Of a DNA stretch of 64,000 nucleotides, positions 5,352-59,347 are shown piece by piece. The stretch lies in contig JABHLG010000009.1 of NCBI GenBank assembly GCA_018692915.1, positions 9,332 to 73,331 of the forward strand, written 5' to 3'. This DNA comes from Candidatus Woesearchaeota archaeon (lineage in GTDB: Archaea > Nanobdellota > Nanobdellia > UBA10117 > JABICX01). Below the pieces are notes generated by a model. The model searched no databases. It saw only the letters and a program-made list of their open reading frames with translations, and was not told the origin of the DNA. How positions within the stretch are numbered: the stretch's first letter is position 1; each line of letters begins with the position of its first letter. The position numbers and the translations under genes were made by a program.

Positions 5352-5891
5352 TTATTCAGCCTTTTCTTCTTCAGACTTCTCTTCTTTCTTATCTTCCTTA
5401 GGTGCTTCTTCTACTTTTTCTTCATTTGCTGGCTCTTCAGTTGCTTCTTCCTTAGCTTCTTCAACTGGAGCTGCAGGTTTCTCTTCTTTCTTTTCTTCTA
5501 CAGGTTTTGCTTCTAAACCTAATAGCTTTGCAATAGTGTCTTTTCCAGCTTTTACAACTTTGCAGTTGATTTGAGCTGTTTGATCAGAAATAGTATTACC
5601 TCTAATTGAGCGTCTCTTTCTCTGGCCTTTTATTTTTGAGTTAAATCCTAAACTTCTAGTTACAACAACCTTTTTTCGTCCAGGACCATCAATATCTTTT
5701 CTCATTGGAAAACCAGAAGTATCTGAACCGCCTGTAACTTCTAATTCATAGCCGTTCAGTCCTATGATTTCGCCACGGAATTTTTCATTAATTTTCTTTC
5801 CGAAAAGCTTCTCAGCATCAGCTCCACTAACAACATGTTTGAATACTTTCTTTTCTTGTTTTGAGCCAATTGCTAACTTTATCTCAACCAT
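5352..5891 (-). CDS. rps6e: 30S ribosomal protein S6e with K/E/A-rich C-terminal extension
   Basis: GYELEVTGGSDTSGFPMRKDIDGPGRKKVVV ... KGQRKRRSIRGNTIS is the S6e signature. About 50 aa of EEKKE/AP-rich tail follow. Confidence 0.85.
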   Translation of the reverse strand: MVEIKLAIGSKQEKKVFKHVVSGADAEKLFGKKINEKFRGEIIGLNGYELEVTGGSDTSGFPMRKDIDGPGRKKVVVTRSLGFNSKIKGQRKRRSIRGNTISDQTAQINCKVVKAGKDTIAKLLGLEAKPVEEKKEEKPAAPVEEAKEEATEEPANEEKVEEAPKEDKKEEKSEEEKAE

Positions 5892-21048: not shown

Positions 21049-21588
21049 TTATTCAGTTTCTTCTGTTTCTTCAACTTCTTCTTGTTCAGGTGTTTCATCA
21101 AGTTGTTCAACTTCTTCTGCAACTGCTTCGACTTTTGGTTCTCCTTCGCCGCTAGGTGAAGGCTCTGCTGGGCTTTGCTCAGCTAAGTCTGCAGGAACTT
21201 CAGGCTTAGGTTCAGGTGCTTGCTCAACTACTTCTTCCACAGGTGCTTCTTGCTTTGGTTCTTCAGCAGGTGATTCAACTAGCTCAGTAGATGCTAATTC
21301 TCTTGAAATTCTGTTTAAATCAATATCCAGAGTTGAAACTCTAACGGTTCTGCCTTCTCTGTTCTTAAATTCTTCAGAATCCATTTTAATACCTGTAACT
21401 TCAATTTGGTCTCTTAAAAATCTACTTTTGACAACTTCAGCAACATCAACTGCTCTGCTAATGAACTTTCCACGAGAACGAATTACAACTTTATTTGCGC
21501 CCTTTGTTGTAAATTGCATAACTACTGCCGTTACGTAATTCATAAACGGCTTTCCACCAACAAAAATTGCGTGCTCCTCTGTCATCAT
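21049..21588 (-). CDS. albA: Alba DNA/RNA-binding protein with about 90-aa acidic P/E-rich C-terminal tail
   Basis: GGKPFMNYVTAVV ... VVIRSRGKFISRAVDVAEVV is the Alba core. The tail is EEPKQEAPVEE...EETEETE. Confidence 0.8.
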   Translation of the reverse strand: MMTEEHAIFVGGKPFMNYVTAVVMQFTTKGANKVVIRSRGKFISRAVDVAEVVKSRFLRDQIEVTGIKMDSEEFKNREGRTVRVSTLDIDLNRISRELASTELVESPAEEPKQEAPVEEVVEQAPEPKPEVPADLAEQSPAEPSPSGEGEPKVEAVAEEVEQLDETPEQEEVEETEETE

Positions 21589-33400: not shown

Positions 33401-34196
33401 GTAAACTAATTAAATTTCTCATTCCTTCTGCTAAACCTAATACAGCTATTGAAATAAGCAAGAAGTTTCTCAATTGTTTGTCTTCTATTTCAGTAGATAT
33501 TACATAAATAGCGGGAATTATAACAACCATTTTTAGTGGAATAAAACTAAATGCGCCAAAGCGCTCTATGAAAAATCTTGGTAGTGGGTGTTTTTCCCAG
33601 CCTCCAACAAAAAATAATATCATAGATGTAGCTGTTGCATCTAGCAAGTGTGCAGTAAATGCTGCATAACCAATCTTATCTGTAATCCATGTCCATTTAA
33701 GTTTTGTAAATACAAAATAAAACGCTACTGCAAGTGAAACAATTGTAAATACAATTCCTAAAAACAATCCTATGTTTTCAAAACTAATTTTTGTGATATT
33801 AATTGCAATGAGATTTACTAAAACAATAATTCCAATTAAATTAGTAATACTATACCAAGGATACTTTGTTTTATGTCCAATCATCAGACCAAATACTAAA
33901 CCAAGTAAGAAAATAAAGGTAGTTAGCAAATAAATTCCCGGAGATACTGTCCAAAAGTTCCTAATCATATATCCTGAGTCAATAAATGCTCTAAGTGTTG
34001 AACCAAACAAAATAAATGGAAGTGTGGATAGTAAAAACTTGAAATCAATTTTTACTTTAAACTTTCTAAGAATTATAAAAATAGTATAAAGCAAAGCAAG
34101 TGCAACAACTGCATATGTAATTGTATTTACAAAATTATAACCTTGTTCTACTCTAATAGGTGATAAAAAATATTTATCTATAAAATTTATTTTCAT
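33390..34196 (-). CDS. polytopic membrane protein (possibly the archaeal DUF63 family)
   Basis: Seven to eight predicted TM helices. The family assignment is from memory only. Confidence 0.5.
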   Translation of the reverse strand: MKINFIDKYFLSPIRVEQGYNFVNTITYAVVALALLYTIFIILRKFKVKIDFKFLLSTLPFILFGSTLRAFIDSGYMIRNFWTVSPGIYLLTTFIFLLGLVFGLMIGHKTKYPWYSITNLIGIIVLVNLIAINITKISFENIGLFLGIVFTIVSLAVAFYFVFTKLKWTWITDKIGYAAFTAHLLDATATSMILFFVGGWEKHPLPRFFIERFGAFSFIPLKMVVIIPAIYVISTEIEDKQLRNFLLISIAVLGLAEGMRNLISLLII

Positions 34197-34524
34197 TTCG
34201 AGACCGCATATACATAAAAAGCCCTATTTGAGATAGGACAGTAATTACTAAAAGTGATGTTAAATAATTTTTAGGAGGCATACCTGCAATTGCAGAGCTT
34301 GTGATTTGGTTCTTAGGATATTTTGAATCATCTAATGGATTTGTTCCTAATTCTACTTCTACGCCATCTGAAAAACCATCTTTATCTGTATCCATATCAT
34401 TAATTCCTGTGCCTAACTCTTGTTCTGATAAATCCTCTAATCCATCATTATCTGTATCAATTGCATAAGCAGAACTAATTATGAAAGTTAATACTAAAAA
34501 CATAATTATAATTTTAAATTTCAT
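34174..34524 (-). CDS. secreted protein with DxDxDG calcium-binding-like repeats and a C-terminal TM anchor
   Basis: Signal peptide MKFKIIIMFLVLTFIISSAYA. Repeats DTDNDGLEDLSEQELGT and DTDKDGFSDGVEVELGT (thrombospondin type 3 / EF-like). C-terminal TM helix followed by RSRNENKFYR. Confidence 0.5.
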   Translation of the reverse strand: MKFKIIIMFLVLTFIISSAYAIDTDNDGLEDLSEQELGTGINDMDTDKDGFSDGVEVELGTNPLDDSKYPKNQITSSAIAGMPPKNYLTSLLVITVLSQIGLFMYMRSRNENKFYR

Positions 34525-34547
34525 TGTTCTTTTCTTTCGCGAACGTT

Positions 34548-34567
34548 TCTTTTCTTACAAGAAAAGA
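34548..34567 (-). terminator. palindromic hairpin tcttttctt-acaa-gaaaaga immediately 3' of the 34574 gene (recurring motif, copy A)
   Basis: Perfect inverted repeat. It is the same TTTCTT-GTAAG-AAA family found at four other sites. Confidence 0.4.
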
Positions 34568-34573
34568 AAGGCT

Positions 34574-35115: not shown

Positions 35116-36600
35116 ATGAGTAAGTATGAAATAATTATGGGGTCATATCAAGGTAGTGTTGAAAAATACTATTTCTTAGCTCTCGAACTGCTCGGAGAGT
35201 TTGGTTTTAAGTCAATCAAGACAAATGATACATTTACATCAAGTATAACTTCTTCATTCTGGGGCTCAATTGAACAACGGAGAACCTTACAACAAGAAAA
35301 AGCATCACAATTCCTTGCGACAATTGGCAACATGATTAAAACTATGTTTCAAATAATTAGGTCTTTACGAATTATGGACGAAAAGATGAAATATTATACT
35401 GAAGCTAAAAAAGGGCCTGACCGAAAATCTGCGGAAATTGCATTAAAAGGAATTTGGATTGATATGGTTGAAGGAGGAGGTAAGAATCCTAGTTCTATTT
35501 ATGGATTAGCAACACAAGTTGGATTTACTACACTTCCAGATTTATTCTTTGATATCTGTCCAAGAGATTCTACTGATTTAAACAAAAAAATGAATGAATT
35601 AAACAAAAGTGGAATAAACAAAAAAATAACTGAAGTTCTTAGAAGAAAACTTTTCCAATATATGGAATGGAGAGATAAAACTGATGAAGAAATTAAAACA
35701 AGTAGAAGATTCCACCTTGCTTATCTTAGACAGCACTTTAACACAATTCGAATGTATTTAAGTTGGGTCAAACCTTATTTGAAAAATGTAAATAGATTAA
35801 AACAACATGGCTCAAGACAAGAACATTTACTAGAAATGGCAGATACTGCAATATCTGATATTGAATTATTTTCTTATCCTGAAAATTTTAAAAAATATAA
35901 AAAATATGTTCCAATAATAACAACTAATTTTGAATACACAACAGTTCCTGAATTATCTTATCAACAAGAATACCAGCGAGGACCAATTCACGTTGGACGA
36001 ACGCGCATGGTAATCGAAGGAAAAGCAATGTTAATTGAAGAAGTACGTGAGAAGTTTAGGCAAGATATGTTAAACGATCTTAACTTACTAAAAGACATGT
36101 TCTCTGCAATGCAAGCACTTGGAGATGATTTAAAGAATTATTTAGAAGAAGCTGAAGAAGAAGACCCTGCAGGTAAACTAGGTAAAAAATTAAAATCTGG
36201 AAAAGCTAAAGCACCTACTGGAATTATTGGTTTATTTGGCCCATTCAAAGATATTGGAAAAGGATTTACAACATTATTTGGTGGATTTACGCGAGGGAAA
36301 AAGAAAGAGTTCAAAAAAACAGTTATAACATATGATTTACCAGAAGACATTGAAAAAATGTGGAAAATAAGACAAGCAACTGTAAAAGAAAAACGAAGTA
36401 GTAGAATGAAATTCAAAATGCGTGAAGATTTTGACGATGATAAATCATTTAAGAAATATTTAGACCTATCTAAAAAACGTAACACAAAAGCAGAAGAAGA
36501 TGAGCTTGCAGCAGTTAAAAAAACTGTAGAAAAAAAAGAAGACATTGTCTGGAAGATTTATGACACATACAAGAAAAGTCTTGGCGTTGTTCGATGGTAA
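35116..36600 (+). CDS. hypothetical protein (494 aa), charged C-terminal third
   Basis: Long clean ORF with no recognised domain. It is divergent from the Q-rich gene. Confidence 0.6.
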   Translation: MSKYEIIMGSYQGSVEKYYFLALELLGEFGFKSIKTNDTFTSSITSSFWGSIEQRRTLQQEKASQFLATIGNMIKTMFQIIRSLRIMDEKMKYYTEAKKGPDRKSAEIALKGIWIDMVEGGGKNPSSIYGLATQVGFTTLPDLFFDICPRDSTDLNKKMNELNKSGINKKITEVLRRKLFQYMEWRDKTDEEIKTSRRFHLAYLRQHFNTIRMYLSWVKPYLKNVNRLKQHGSRQEHLLEMADTAISDIELFSYPENFKKYKKYVPIITTNFEYTTVPELSYQQEYQRGPIHVGRTRMVIEGKAMLIEEVREKFRQDMLNDLNLLKDMFSAMQALGDDLKNYLEEAEEEDPAGKLGKKLKSGKAKAPTGIIGLFGPFKDIGKGFTTLFGGFTRGKKKEFKKTVITYDLPEDIEKMWKIRQATVKEKRSSRMKFKMREDFDDDKSFKKYLDLSKKRNTKAEEDELAAVKKTVEKKEDIVWKIYDTYKKSLGVVRW

Positions 36601-36605
36601 TGAAA

Positions 36606-36629
36606 CTTTCTTTCTTGTAAGAAAGAAAG
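36606..36629 (+). terminator. palindromic hairpin ctttctttctt-gta-agaaagaaag, 6 nt after the stop codon (recurring motif, copy B)
   Basis: Seen directly in the sequence. It sits in terminator position. Confidence 0.45.
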
Positions 36630-36781
36630 AACATAGAGAAAAACTATTTTTAAAATACATTATATAATGCCATTGTCTACGACAATTGCGGAATTGAAAA
36701 TCTATACGAATAACATCTTCAAATTTTCAATAAACAAATAAGGAAAGTTATTTCTATGAGTAATTACTATATAATTATAGC

Positions 36782-48552: not shown

Positions 48553-48735
48553 AGCCTCGGGGGAGATTTTCATCATCTTACAATCTGTTCTTTTGGGATT
48601 GTAAAACCTTTTCTTACAAGAAAAGGGATTATATTGAACTCCCGACCTCTGCCTTACCAAGGCAGCGCTATTTAGAGCGTTCCGGTCTAAGCCGGCGAAG
48701 CTTTGCTTCGGCACGTACCCCTAAGCCACCGAGGC
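48553..48735 (-). tRNA. probable tRNA (anticodon GGU, Thr-like) with non-canonical introns (about 71 nt in the T-loop, about 44 nt in the D region)
   Basis: GC-rich island. On the minus strand: 7-bp acceptor gcctcgg/ccgaggc, T-stem gggag/ctccc, T-loop ttcaa[intron]at giving TTCAAAT, variable aggtc, and anticodon arm ctgcc-ttGGTaa-ggcag. The T-loop insert is homologous to the tRNA-Leu intron. The D-arm could not be resolved by eye. Confidence 0.45.
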
Positions 48736-48751
48736 TTTATCTAGCTAAATA

Positions 48752-49276
48752 ATGGTCAATGTAGTTAAAAAGATTTCACTTTTAATAAAACAATATTTAA
48801 AAAGGAATAATTACTCAAATCAAATGACTGATGTAGTTAATATCCTAGAACAGATTATCAATAAAGAGTATTATGAATTTTCATGCGAGCGCCAGGCAGA
48901 AGAATATGAAGCGATACGTGATGAACGTAGCGGTCGTTATGGTGAAGGTGAAAAAGGAGATTGCTGGCCACACTATTCTGATTTTTTAGAACATTCATTA
49001 TGGATAAAATTACATGAAAATTTCAAAACGCCAGAAGAACTTATTCAAGTAGCTACACTATTATTAGATAAACATGAAAAATTTGAAAAAGGATATTTTG
49101 AACGCAGTATTAACAAAATAAAAGACATATATAGTTCTCCATTCGACACACATGTGCAAAAATACGTAGAAAAACTTGCAGCTAAGGAAAGCCTAGCTGA
49201 ACCAGAAGGTGTAATTGATAAAGATATAGACGTTATAAATAATGACTTTACTCAGAAATCACTTATTGATTTTTAA
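48752..49276 (+). CDS. hypothetical protein (174 aa; start may be at a later Met)
   Basis: ORF track entry. Its 5' end abuts the RNA locus. Confidence 0.4.
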   Translation: MVNVVKKISLLIKQYLKRNNYSNQMTDVVNILEQIINKEYYEFSCERQAEEYEAIRDERSGRYGEGEKGDCWPHYSDFLEHSLWIKLHENFKTPEELIQVATLLLDKHEKFEKGYFERSINKIKDIYSSPFDTHVQKYVEKLAAKESLAEPEGVIDKDIDVINNDFTQKSLIDF

Positions 49277-52370: not shown

Positions 52371-52509
52371 GCTGGGGTACCGAAGTGGTCAAACGGGCAG
52401 GACTTAAGATGAGCCCTTTCTTGTAAGAAAGGTTTCACAGTCCCAAAGAACAAATTATAAGACATCCTGTGGCTTAGTGCCTACGCAGGTTCAAACCCTG
52501 TCCCCAGCA
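52371..52509 (+). tRNA. tRNA-Leu (anticodon UAA) with about 55-nt intron at the canonical 37/38 position (approximately 52410-52464)
   Basis: Acceptor gctgggg/ccccagc, D-arm ccga-agtggtcaa-acgg, anticodon arm cagga-ctTAAga-[intron]-tcctg, a long variable arm (ggcttagtgcctac), T-arm gcagg-ttcaaac-cctgt, discriminator A. No encoded CCA. Confidence 0.75.
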
Positions 52510-52676
52510 CATTTATTTTTATTCTGGAAAGATTATGTTATGGCGATCAGATTACGTTTAAATAAAAAGAATGTAAAAAAGGCGCTAGTTGAGTTCTGAA
52601 TACCTATTCGATACCTTTATATATGAATAAGTATTCATAATTATTAGAGCTGAAAAAAGCTTAGGAGGAAAATAAA

Positions 52677-58212: not shown

Positions 58213-58336
58213 AAAAAGTAATTCTTCCTTTATTTTTTATTTTTAGATAAGCTTTTTATTACTATAATCTCATATATTTACATATATCCCGACAAACAGG
58301 AACAAAGTGGACTCGTTGTGTCCCCAGCACTGAACC

Positions 58337-58354
58337 TTTTTCTTGTAAGAAAAA
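58337..58354 (+). other. palindromic hairpin tttttctt-gt-aagaaaaa (recurring motif, copy E), 7 nt after a 12-nt copy of the tRNA-Leu 3' end
   Basis: Seen directly in the sequence. tgtccccagcac at 58319-58330 equals 52499-52510. Confidence 0.5.
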
Positions 58355-58381
58355 CGTTCTCGAAAAAGAACATTTTCAAAA

Positions 58382-59347
58382 ATGAAAACATGTAAAATAG
58401 GTTCTATAGAAATTAAGAATAACATTTGTCTAGCGCCGATGGCAGGTTTAACAGATATTGCTTTTAGAGTGTTAGCTAAAAAACAAGGTGTTGGATTAGT
58501 CTGGACTGAAATGGTTTCTGTAAATGCCATCAACCAAAACAATGGCGTTACAATGAGAATGACTGAAATCGATCCTAACGAAAGACCTGTTGCAATTCAA
58601 TTATTTGGTCAGCAGATTGAGCAGATTGAAAGAGCAGTTAAGAAAATCGAAGACCGCGCAGACATTATTGATTTTAATATGGGCTGTCCTGCAACACATA
58701 TTATTAGAGCAGGTTCTTGTTCTGCATTATTAGGTCGACCTGAAAAAGTTAAAAAAATTATTGAAACAATTCGCAAATCAACAAAGAAACCAATCACTGT
58801 AAAAATAAGAATAGGTCTTAATGACTACAAAAAAAATCATGTTCGAATTGCTAAAATTATTGAGCAAGCAGGAGCAGATGCAATTATAGTTCATGGCAGA
58901 ACTGTTGCTCAAAAATATTCAGGGATTGTAAATTACAAAGCAATTAAAGAAGTTAAAGATGCGGTCTCAATTCCTGTAATTGGAAATGGTGATATTGTTG
59001 ATGGCGCTTCTGCTAAGAAAATGTTTGATGAAACAGGTTGTGATGCGATTATGGTAGGTAGGGCTGCTGCCAAAGACCCGTTCATATTCAAGCGAATTAT
59101 TCATTATCTAAAAACTGGAAAAGAACTTCCTGAACCAACTGATAAAGAAAAGATAAATCACTTTTTTGAATATGCAAAACTCTGTGAAAAATATACTATT
59201 AGAGTAGGTCATTTAATTGCTCACGCACATTTATTCACAAAAGGAATTAGAAAAAGCACAATACTTCGTGAACAAATTAATACAGTAAAAACGCGCGATG
59301 AAGTAATTGCGCTAATTAAATCATTTAAGAAAAAGCTTAAAAACTAA
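58382..59347 (+). CDS. dus: tRNA-dihydrouridine synthase
   Basis: LAPMAGLTDIAFR ... FGQ ... DFNMGCP FMN TIM-barrel motifs. Confidence 0.9.
   Translation: MKTCKIGSIEIKNNICLAPMAGLTDIAFRVLAKKQGVGLVWTEMVSVNAINQNNGVTMRMTEIDPNERPVAIQLFGQQIEQIERAVKKIEDRADIIDFNMGCPATHIIRAGSCSALLGRPEKVKKIIETIRKSTKKPITVKIRIGLNDYKKNHVRIAKIIEQAGADAIIVHGRTVAQKYSGIVNYKAIKEVKDAVSIPVIGNGDIVDGASAKKMFDETGCDAIMVGRAAAKDPFIFKRIIHYLKTGKELPEPTDKEKINHFFEYAKLCEKYTIRVGHLIAHAHLFTKGIRKSTILREQINTVKTRDEVIALIKSFKKKLKN

Follow-up and report, generated by a model that had tools for sequence, protein, structure and literature searches.

A tRNA-Thr(GGU) locus in three exons

The locus considered here lies at positions 48553..48735, minus strand, of a stretch of 64,000 nucleotides (nt) of contig JABHLG010000009.1, referred to as the window. 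Read on the minus strand, its 183 nt form the precursor of a tRNA-Thr(GGU), with three exons, two introns and the layout GCCTCGG TG GCTT AGGGGT[45 nt]A TAGC G CTGCC TTGGTAA GGCAG AGGTC GGGAG TTCAAT[66 nt]T CTCCC CCGAGGC T. Very probably, this is a working tRNA gene of a Woesearchaeota-like DPANN archaeon, and the intron in its T-loop is the recent insertion of a repeat module.

The acceptor stem (7 bp, GCCTCGG/CCGAGGC), the T-stem (5 bp, GGGAG/CTCCC), the anticodon stem (CTGCC/GGCAG), the variable loop (AGGTC) and the anticodon loop (TTGGTAA) are all present, as an earlier, sequence-only reading of this DNA had listed them. Exon 1 (48717..48735, minus strand; GCCTCGGTGGCTTAGGGGT) comprises the 5′ strand of the acceptor stem, U8 and G9, the 5′ strand of the D-stem, and the D-loop as far as U20. 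Exon 2 (48633..48671, minus strand) extends from A21 through the 3′ strand of the D-stem, the anticodon arm (GGT), the variable loop and the 5′ strand of the T-stem to T-loop positions 54-59 (TTCAAT). Exon 3 (48553..48566, minus strand) contributes T-loop position 60, the 3′ strands of the T-stem and acceptor stem, and the discriminator U. The intron between exons 1 and 2 (48672..48716, minus strand) was delimited by parsing by hand, constrained folding and orthologs; the insert of about 44 nt noted earlier in the D region is thereby retained, with its size corrected to 45 nt and its place fixed in the D-loop, at 20/21. The intron between exons 2 and 3 (48567..48632, minus strand) interrupts the T-loop at 59/60 and is 66 nt long, rather than 71 nt as first counted.

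When these two segments are excised in silico, ARAGORN identifies the 72-nt product as a tRNA-Thr(ggt) with a normal cloverleaf. The unspliced locus elicits no such call, nor does ARAGORN call a tRNA anywhere in the window. Likewise, the unspliced locus falls below the Rfam gathering score, and the only tRNA found by Rfam in the window is a tRNA-Leu at 52371-52509. A permissive local Rfam scan (E up to 10) yields no credible match beyond a partial tRNA hit that covers the anticodon arm (18.1 bits, E=0.68); no Rfam family besides tRNA reaches its gathering threshold either at the locus or at the repeat module described below. The guanine-plus-cytosine (GC) content of the locus is 0.486, compared with 0.32 for the window; it was first taken to be the most GC-rich stretch of the window, but ranks second to the coding stretch 21105-21287 (0.497).

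The whole locus is 100% identical in two other independent assemblies, L119 and L137, and thus is no assembly artefact. No second tRNA-Thr was found within the 64 kb by ARAGORN, by Rfam or by a screen for an acceptor stem plus T-arm; this last screen for hidden tRNAs returned only the tRNA-Leu and two chance matches, one of them inside an open reading frame (ORF) of 595 amino acids.

Orthologs and the history of the two introns

Contigs of relatives were fetched through homologs of ribosomal protein S8e and through one metagenome scan. They contain orthologous tRNA-Thr genes in a shared gene order (S8e, TFIIB, TRM, Na/H exchanger). We take the comparison with one of them, L140, to be the decisive one. 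The L140 gene has the identical 45-nt intron in its D-loop, as well as a 12-nt intron at the canonical position, while its T-loop is uninterrupted and reads TTCAATT. Its spliced product and that of the window are identical at 72 of 72 positions, which bears out the earlier claim that the introns are non-canonical and that one of them resides in the T-loop. The canonical intron of L140 (Ga0233430_1000238; ATTTTACCAAAT) is minimal, with a TTGG/CCAA central helix and almost no inner helix.

Intronless tRNA-Thr(GGT) genes are found in L117, L142 and L132. That of L117 scores 67.7 bits with the Rfam tRNA model and matches the spliced window product at 68 of 72 positions; together with the ARAGORN call, it upholds the assignment to a tRNA with anticodon GGU. 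Excision of the D-loop intron yields a 7-nt D-loop, equal in length to that of L117, and one D-stem pair differs by a compensatory change (A12-U23 in L117, U12-A23 in the window). In L115 there is only a canonical intron, 38 nt long and of unrelated sequence. L116, whose 5′ end is cut off, has a canonical intron, an insert in the 5′ region with the hairpin ATGAAGCAAGCTTCAT, and an uninterrupted T-loop, again TTCAATT.

The T-loop site is therefore filled in the window, L119 and L137, and empty in L140, L116, L115, L117, L132 and L142. The empty site reads TTCAAT|TCTCCC, i.e., the insertion took place without target-site duplication. Because the D-loop intron is common to relatives, we conclude from these sequences that it is the older of the two, and that the T-loop intron is a younger, recent insertion. 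The presence and absence of the latter among relatives would agree with intron gain by insertion. To this extent the intron mobility suggested by the sequence-only reading holds; mobility of the module at the DNA level is something we infer.

The D-loop intron holds two hairpins, CGAAGC-AAA-GCTTCG and CCGG-CTTAGA-CCGG. The window contains no further copy of it, and the only similar hairpin is that of L116, in the orthologous gene; the idea that the D-loop intron also represents a repeat family was accordingly rejected. Within this intron, positions 48691-48697 nearly copy the start of the exonic D-arm at 48721-48727, with GGCTTAG in both (minus strand), and the same pattern of exon/intron near-copies is seen in the L116 ortholog, at 19-23 and 34-38, with GCTAG.

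Geometry of the splice junctions

The junctions were assigned by the rule that a 4-bp helix is flanked by two 3-nt bulges, each of which the endonuclease cuts after its second base. Applied to the tRNA-Leu of the window, this rule recovers the canonical 37/38 junction. At both introns of the tRNA-Thr a relaxed bulge-helix-bulge motif can be drawn, an outcome that speaks for the earlier proposal of introns. At the T-loop intron, the outer helix is the T-stem (GGGAG/CUCCC) and the central helix UUCA/UGAA, with AU|A and AA|U as bulges; the insert brings its own TGAA, which pairs with the exon. The minimum-free-energy fold contains the T-stem, the helix between UUCA (54-57) and UGAA, and the 3′ bulge AAU (pair probabilities ~0.64-0.74), and the fold z-score is -4.4. 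The 59/60 junction results in the mature T-loop TTCAATT, and not TTCAAAT as the sequence-only reading had it; this assignment is backed by both the bulge-helix-bulge geometry and the orthologs with an empty site. In a targeted T-loop test, the same 59/60 geometry was found, together with the same module, in five further tRNA genes (L047, L059, L108, L053 and L107), three of which sit in one Woesearchaeota metagenome-assembled genome (MAG). The rule yields 7-nt T-loops in all five.

At the D-loop intron, the relaxed motif that can be drawn consists of the outer helix GCU/AGC, the central helix AGGG/CUCU, the bulges GU|A and AA|A, and the inner helix CGU/ACG. At the junctions, which the orthologs fix independently, the four bases that need to pair are complementary in both cases, namely UUCA/UGAA and AGGG/CUCU.

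A repeat module shared with the tRNA-Leu intron

The tRNA-Leu(UAA) gene (52371..52509, plus strand; Rfam tRNA, 44.4 bits) has an intron of 55 nt at the canonical 37/38 position (52409..52463, plus strand), with a strict bulge-helix-bulge (outer helix of 6 bp, central helix CTTA/TAAG, inner helix of 3 bp). This intron and the T-loop intron of the tRNA-Thr are identical at 44 of 51 positions, with a local alignment score of 63, compared with a maximum of 27 in 2000 shuffles; the homology proposed earlier between the two is thus confirmed. One genome therefore contains near-identical introns at different positions (59/60 in Thr, 37/38 in Leu) of different tRNA genes.

The core shared by the two introns is a module with three strands. 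In order, these are a pyrimidine strand, a short loop, a complementary purine strand that closes a hairpin, a short spacer or small hairpin, and a second purine strand, which is the mirror of the first and hence the parallel complement of the pyrimidine strand. In the Thr T-loop intron (48586..48627, minus strand), the pyrimidine strand CCCTTTTCTT is followed by the loop GTA, the purine strand AAGAAAAGG, the spacer and the mirror purine strand CCCAAAAGAACA. The Leu copy (52414..52452, plus strand) reads CCCTTTCTT-GTA-AAGAAAGG ... CCCAAAGAACA, each of its three strands being shorter than in the Thr copy by one T/A layer.

This core, as the sequence-only reading had overlooked, is one copy of a repeat that occurs also between genes of the window and across DPANN. 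The 14-mer TTTCTTGTAAGAAA is found five times in the window, against 0.21 expected, and AAAGAACA follows within 18 nt in each case. Two of these five copies are the Thr and Leu introns; the other three lie at gene boundaries. One (34525..34572, minus strand) is located between two ORFs of the same strand and ends directly at the ATG of ORF 34174-34524. A second, short copy (36606..36633, plus strand), in which strands two and three overlap, begins 6 nt beyond the end of ORF 35116-36600. The third (58335..58372, plus strand) ends 9 nt before the ATG of ORF 58382-59347. All three run in the direction of the flanking genes.

No convincing bulge-helix-bulge was found around these three intergenic copies. 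A strict bulge-helix-bulge finder permitting short outer helices was discarded, since it solved 75% of random sites; the weak solutions that surround the intergenic copies are therefore meaningless, and splicing there is not claimed. Just upstream of the third copy, the 12-mer TGTCCCCAGCAC at 58319-58330 equals the 3′ end of the tRNA-Leu (52499-52510). The notion that it is a tRNA fragment or an attachment-site repeat was dropped, because chance alone would give about four 11-mer matches, where several are seen, and about one match of 12 nt in this window.

Three-strand covariation and triplex layout

The lengths of the three tracts shift together: TTTTCTT/AAGAAAA/AAAAGAA in Thr corresponds to TTTCTT/AAGAAA/AAAGAA in Leu, and at least 12 further variants behave likewise. 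When strands 1 and 3 were compared with permuted partners, outside the bases fixed by the search pattern, the parallel complement gave z=6.3, the antiparallel complement z=1.5 and the direct repeat z=1.1; because a sequence pattern was used to pick these loci, and common descent links many of the copies, the z-scores overstate independence, a caution against the three-strand interpretation. Of 205 hairpins whose 5′ strand is all pyrimidine and at least 8 bp long, 79 had a downstream sequence that fitted the mirror better, 9 one that fitted the direct copy better, and 117 were ties. This full-length comparison replaced an 8-mer control (hairpin plus direct purine copy), whose counts resembled those of the mirror search and which was uninformative because the tracts are periodic. 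A generic scan for triplex motifs found three in the window, compared with 0.15 in shuffled sequences.

Class II, or purine-motif, intrastrand triplex motifs have been defined previously (PMC4666352). The module has this layout, i.e., a pyrimidine tract, its Watson-Crick purine partner, a mirror purine tract and short loops, and may thus adopt a compact three-strand, triplex-type fold; the folding tools used here model only Watson-Crick and wobble pairs. A pseudoknot, in which the loop UGU would pair with the ACA that follows the third strand, was considered and found unsupported: ACA also follows the loops GGG, TGAA and TTAAA, and there is no covariation.

Distribution of the module in DPANN archaea and Clostridia

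A scan for the module pattern, with one genome per species, returned at least 114 stretches. Among the matches listed, 79 loci are archaeal and represent several DPANN phyla, with MAG labels that include Micrarchaeota, Aenigmatarchaeota, Woesearchaeota, Pacearchaeota, Parvarchaeota, Iainarchaeum and Nanoarchaeia, often with several copies per genome. Inspection of the flanks places about half of the copies listed inside tRNA genes, in sense orientation, in the D-loop, after the D-stem, in the anticodon loop, in the T-loop or just past the 3′ end, as 3′ trailers. The remaining copies among those matches are intergenic, in either orientation, and sometimes in tandem. Conservation across phyla is strong for the top of the hairpin and for the terminal GAACA. 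These genomes are also rich in modules whose loop has another sequence; the triad, and not the loop, is the common theme. Nine matches on viral contigs turned out to be one homologous coding sequence and not the module.

Attempts to excise every segment around each module copy and to submit the products to ARAGORN, also with guidance by bulge-helix-bulge motifs, proved too noisy, in that odd products were accepted and multi-intron genes failed. These screens were used only for a few clear cases; the targeted T-loop test took their place.

Several arrangements of the module recur in particular groups. In the MAGs L037 and L058 (Parvarchaeota), it is part of a 57-nt unit, GGTTGTTGTCTGCCCC-TTTCTTGTAAGAAA-GGTGTAAGTTGCCCC-AAAGAACA-TAT, arrayed head to tail. 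In Aenigmatarchaeota-type MAGs (L009, L031, L034, L042, L064, L067, L102, L104 and L106), unrelated genes, encoded on the strand opposite to the module, have a copy 8-14 nt from their start codon and downstream of an AT-rich box, so that the mRNA leader would carry the complementary, pyrimidine-motif version. In Iainarchaeum and related MAGs (L027, L071 and L098), a conserved sequence that is not tRNA, GGTCAGAACAGAAGGCGGCTTA(T/C)GGCCTGCTGCTC, lies ahead of the module; it may form the end of a further structured RNA, e.g., signal recognition particle (SRP) RNA.

The three-strand module is also found in Clostridia, in MAGs and isolates (L005, L017, L032, L044, L045, L051, L072, L073, L074, L085 and L109). 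There, in most cases, a stop codon precedes it and a terminator-like hairpin comes after it, and some copies are trailed by a second hairpin, GCGAAGC-NNN-GCTTCGC. In L045 the module is present as three tandem copies, with covariation among the three strands, e.g., TTTCTCTTG / AAGAGAAA / AAAGAGAAC. No Rfam family matches the Clostridial module.

Proposed maturation pathway and origin of the T-loop intron

On this basis we propose the following pathway for the tRNA-Thr. Transcription would start from an AT-rich, promoter-like box, GAAATCTTTTTAACT (48763..48777, minus strand), recognized by its position and conservation. It lies 27 nt upstream of the mature 5′ end, and the box GAAA(A)TCTTTTTAACT is kept upstream of the mature 5′ end of every ortholog, at a distance of 22 nt in the others; this conserved element is the candidate promoter. 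The precursor would then fold such that each intron presents its relaxed bulge-helix-bulge, and the archaeal splicing endonuclease would cut it at precursor positions 19/20 and 64/65, releasing the D-loop intron, and at 103/104 and 169/170, releasing the T-loop intron. An RtcB-type ligase would join the exons into the 72-nt tRNA. Both introns, we infer, are spliced in vivo. The core of the T-loop intron is one copy of the repeat that also forms the canonical intron of the neighbouring tRNA-Leu. Compact self-pairing of the module would avoid disturbing the folding of the tRNA, and insertions could be tolerated wherever a bulge-helix-bulge can form.

Several observations weigh against this interpretation. 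On its 5′ side, the T-loop motif has an internal loop in place of a clean 3-nt bulge, i.e., it is relaxed. The D-loop motif has a U-U mismatch beside one bulge and a pair probability of only ~0.01; constrained folding places it 3.2 kcal/mol above the minimum free energy, with a competing local hairpin more stable. Given this weakness in folding, support for the D-loop junction comes mainly from the orthologs. No copies of the module were found in ~79 kb of contigs from close relatives, and neither a transposase nor terminal repeats nor a target duplication was found for the module. Lastly, according to literature quoted in PMC4666352, purine-motif triplexes form in DNA and not in RNA, so the transcribed intron may not adopt the triplex; the complementary strand would give a pyrimidine motif, which is able to form in RNA (PMC4666352).

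More tentatively, and with more doubt than confidence, we suggest a broader interpretation, namely that the intron core belongs to a DPANN-wide family of tiny introner-like repeats, with relatives in Clostridia, whose only conserved content is the triplex-type fold. Such repeats would insert without target duplication and become tRNA introns where their ends pair with the exon to form a bulge-helix-bulge. If so, this family would explain the heavy disruption of tRNA genes in DPANN and provide a mechanism of intron gain in archaea; it would also link non-B nucleic-acid structure to the origin of introns.

Alternative explanations

It is conceivable, though in our view unlikely, that the module is not a mobile or selfish repeat at all, but a functional RNA or DNA signal that was independently recruited into introns, such as an element for transcript ends or stability, a site bound by a protein, or a compact fold that stabilizes the excised intron. 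The intergenic copies of the window, which coincide with gene boundaries and are oriented like the genes beside them, would suit such a role, as would the Clostridial location between stop codons and hairpins resembling intrinsic terminators, and the strong conservation across phyla of the hairpin top and the GAACA end. However, a terminator inside tRNA genes would be harmful, and many copies in Aenigmatarchaeota MAGs are upstream of genes in the opposite orientation. Tandem arrays (L037, L045), variation in presence and absence between close relatives, and the lack of a matching Rfam family are likewise at odds with a functional signal.

We consider it very unlikely that insertion of the repeat into the T-loop simply inactivated the tRNA-Thr gene, leaving another copy or isoacceptor to decode. 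In favour of a dead gene, standard tRNA finders miss this locus; both splicing motifs are relaxed, the D-loop one being thermodynamically weak; and the same repeat does occur at intergenic sites that have no convincing splicing motif. Yet every stem is kept and the exons equal the L140 product at 72 of 72 positions. Moreover, the insert carries exactly the TGAA that pairs with T54-A57, and a 3-nt bulge separates this TGAA from the T-stem; five other tRNA genes have this arrangement. The promoter-like box is retained, the locus is identical in three assemblies, and no second tRNA-Thr was found in the 64 kb.

A gene that is real but spliced at 58/59, with TTCAAAT as its T-loop, is improbable to at least the same degree. 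TTCAAAT is the commonest archaeal T-loop, the flanking bases permit the shift in register, and ARAGORN accepts the resulting product equally well. Nevertheless, the closest relatives with an uninterrupted T-loop, L140 and L116, read TTCAATT, and the cut rule that recovers the Leu 37/38 junction gives 59/60 here and T-loops of 7 nt in the five other cases.

Finally, a structured RNA other than a tRNA, e.g., an SRP RNA fragment or another small RNA, can be dismissed for practical purposes: it would account for a GC-rich island with a strongly negative folding z-score, but even at E up to 10 the covariance-model check, which the sequence-only reading had proposed against itself, yields only the partial tRNA match, and the exons match orthologous tRNA-Thr genes completely.

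Relation to known systems

The tRNA-Thr gene belongs to a known kind, that of the disrupted archaeal tRNA genes. Non-canonical and multiple bulge-helix-bulge introns have been described in tRNA genes of Thermoproteales, Thaumarchaeota and DPANN (PMC4090602, PMC5829648). In DPANN, tRNA gene disruption is increased and tRNA sets are incomplete, and several DPANN lineages have variants of the splicing endonuclease with extra loops (PMC5829648). The Thr locus resembles these genes in having introns outside 37/38 (in the D-loop and T-loop) for which relaxed motifs can be drawn, in the expected removal by the endonuclease, and in being missed by standard finders. Nothing essential differs; it is a new instance, in an uncultured Woesearchaeota-like lineage, for which the closest relatives document all intron states, from no intron, through a canonical intron alone and a canonical intron together with one in the D-loop, to introns in both D-loop and T-loop. 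For annotation, the consequence is that standard tools overlook such genes, which gives DPANN tRNA sets an appearance of incompleteness; more such genes may be found with the help of the junction rules and the module.

Intron transposition has been reported in Thermoproteales, by a mechanism described as "still unknown" (PMC4090602). As for the transposed introns of a 2010 study summarized there, the T-loop intron was probably gained after speciation. Here, by contrast, the superphylum is a different one, the shared sequence is a defined three-strand module, and the site is available as an exact filled/empty pair, with no target duplication. The module also occurs outside tRNA genes, in intergenic positions, 3′ trailers and tandem arrays, and in Clostridia. 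For the study of intron gain, we thus have a filled site and an exactly matching empty site in close relatives, together with an insert that is a recognizable repeat found also outside tRNA genes; donor, target and boundaries are therefore open to study at single-base resolution.

Intrastrand triplex motifs of prokaryotic genomes include the PIT elements, BoxC and TMECO (Hoyne et al. 2000; Holder et al. 2015, PMC4666352). The module shares with these the class II purine-motif order on one strand, and the occurrence as many repeats per genome, mostly intergenic. TMECO is G/C-rich (CCCTCNCCC...) and proteobacterial, whereas the A/T-rich module conserves a GTA loop and a GAACA end and has no sequence similarity to it. 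The TMECO/BoxC consensus of Enterobacteria, CCCTCNCCC-N3-6-GGGNGAGGG-N3-GGGNGAGGG, does not describe the module, which is another family with the same architecture. For TMECO DNA, a triplex has been physically demonstrated, while that of the module is predicted from its layout. The presence of the module in DPANN and Clostridia, and inside tRNA genes as an intron core, is unlike anything reported in PMC4666352. Intrastrand triplex motifs have so far been known as a source of genome instability in bacteria, and not as intron material; if its fold forms, the module would link nucleic-acid structure with the spread and tolerance of introns.

Eukaryotic introners are transposable elements that create spliceosomal introns (PMC9860276). 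The idea is common to them and the module, namely that splicing signals come with an element that is repeated and able to insert, so that it becomes an intron wherever it lands. They differ in that, for the module, the spliceosome is replaced by a protein endonuclease and the bulge-helix-bulge, the element is ~40-70 nt long, and no link to a transposase is known; the comparison is an analogy only. Searches of the literature by sequence and by topic returned no account of the module. Relative to that literature, a triplex-type repeat as a putatively mobile intron core, common to DPANN phyla, present also between genes and caught as a filled/empty pair, appears to be new.

Neighbouring genes and further observations

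The genes next to the tRNA-Thr are archaeal. Ribosomal protein S8e is encoded 40 nt downstream, followed by TFIIB and then by a Trm1-type methyltransferase; the top named relative of the S8e is from a Woesearchaeota MAG, with 51% identity. The coding stretch of highest GC content, at 21105-21287, appears repetitive by eye and is rich in CTTC and TGCT. Elsewhere, in L133 (Ga0114931_10017794; ~5630-5870, plus strand), a complete tRNA gene, GCCAGGGTAGCTCAGGTGG...CCCCTGGTA, apparently resides inside the anticodon-loop intron of another tRNA gene. The outer gene reads GGCTGGGTAGCTCAGCGG ... AGGCAGAGGTCGGGAGTTCAATTCTCCCCCCAGCTACA, and the inner gene is flanked by the complementary arms CCCCGTCACTTTAA / TTAAGTGACGGGG.

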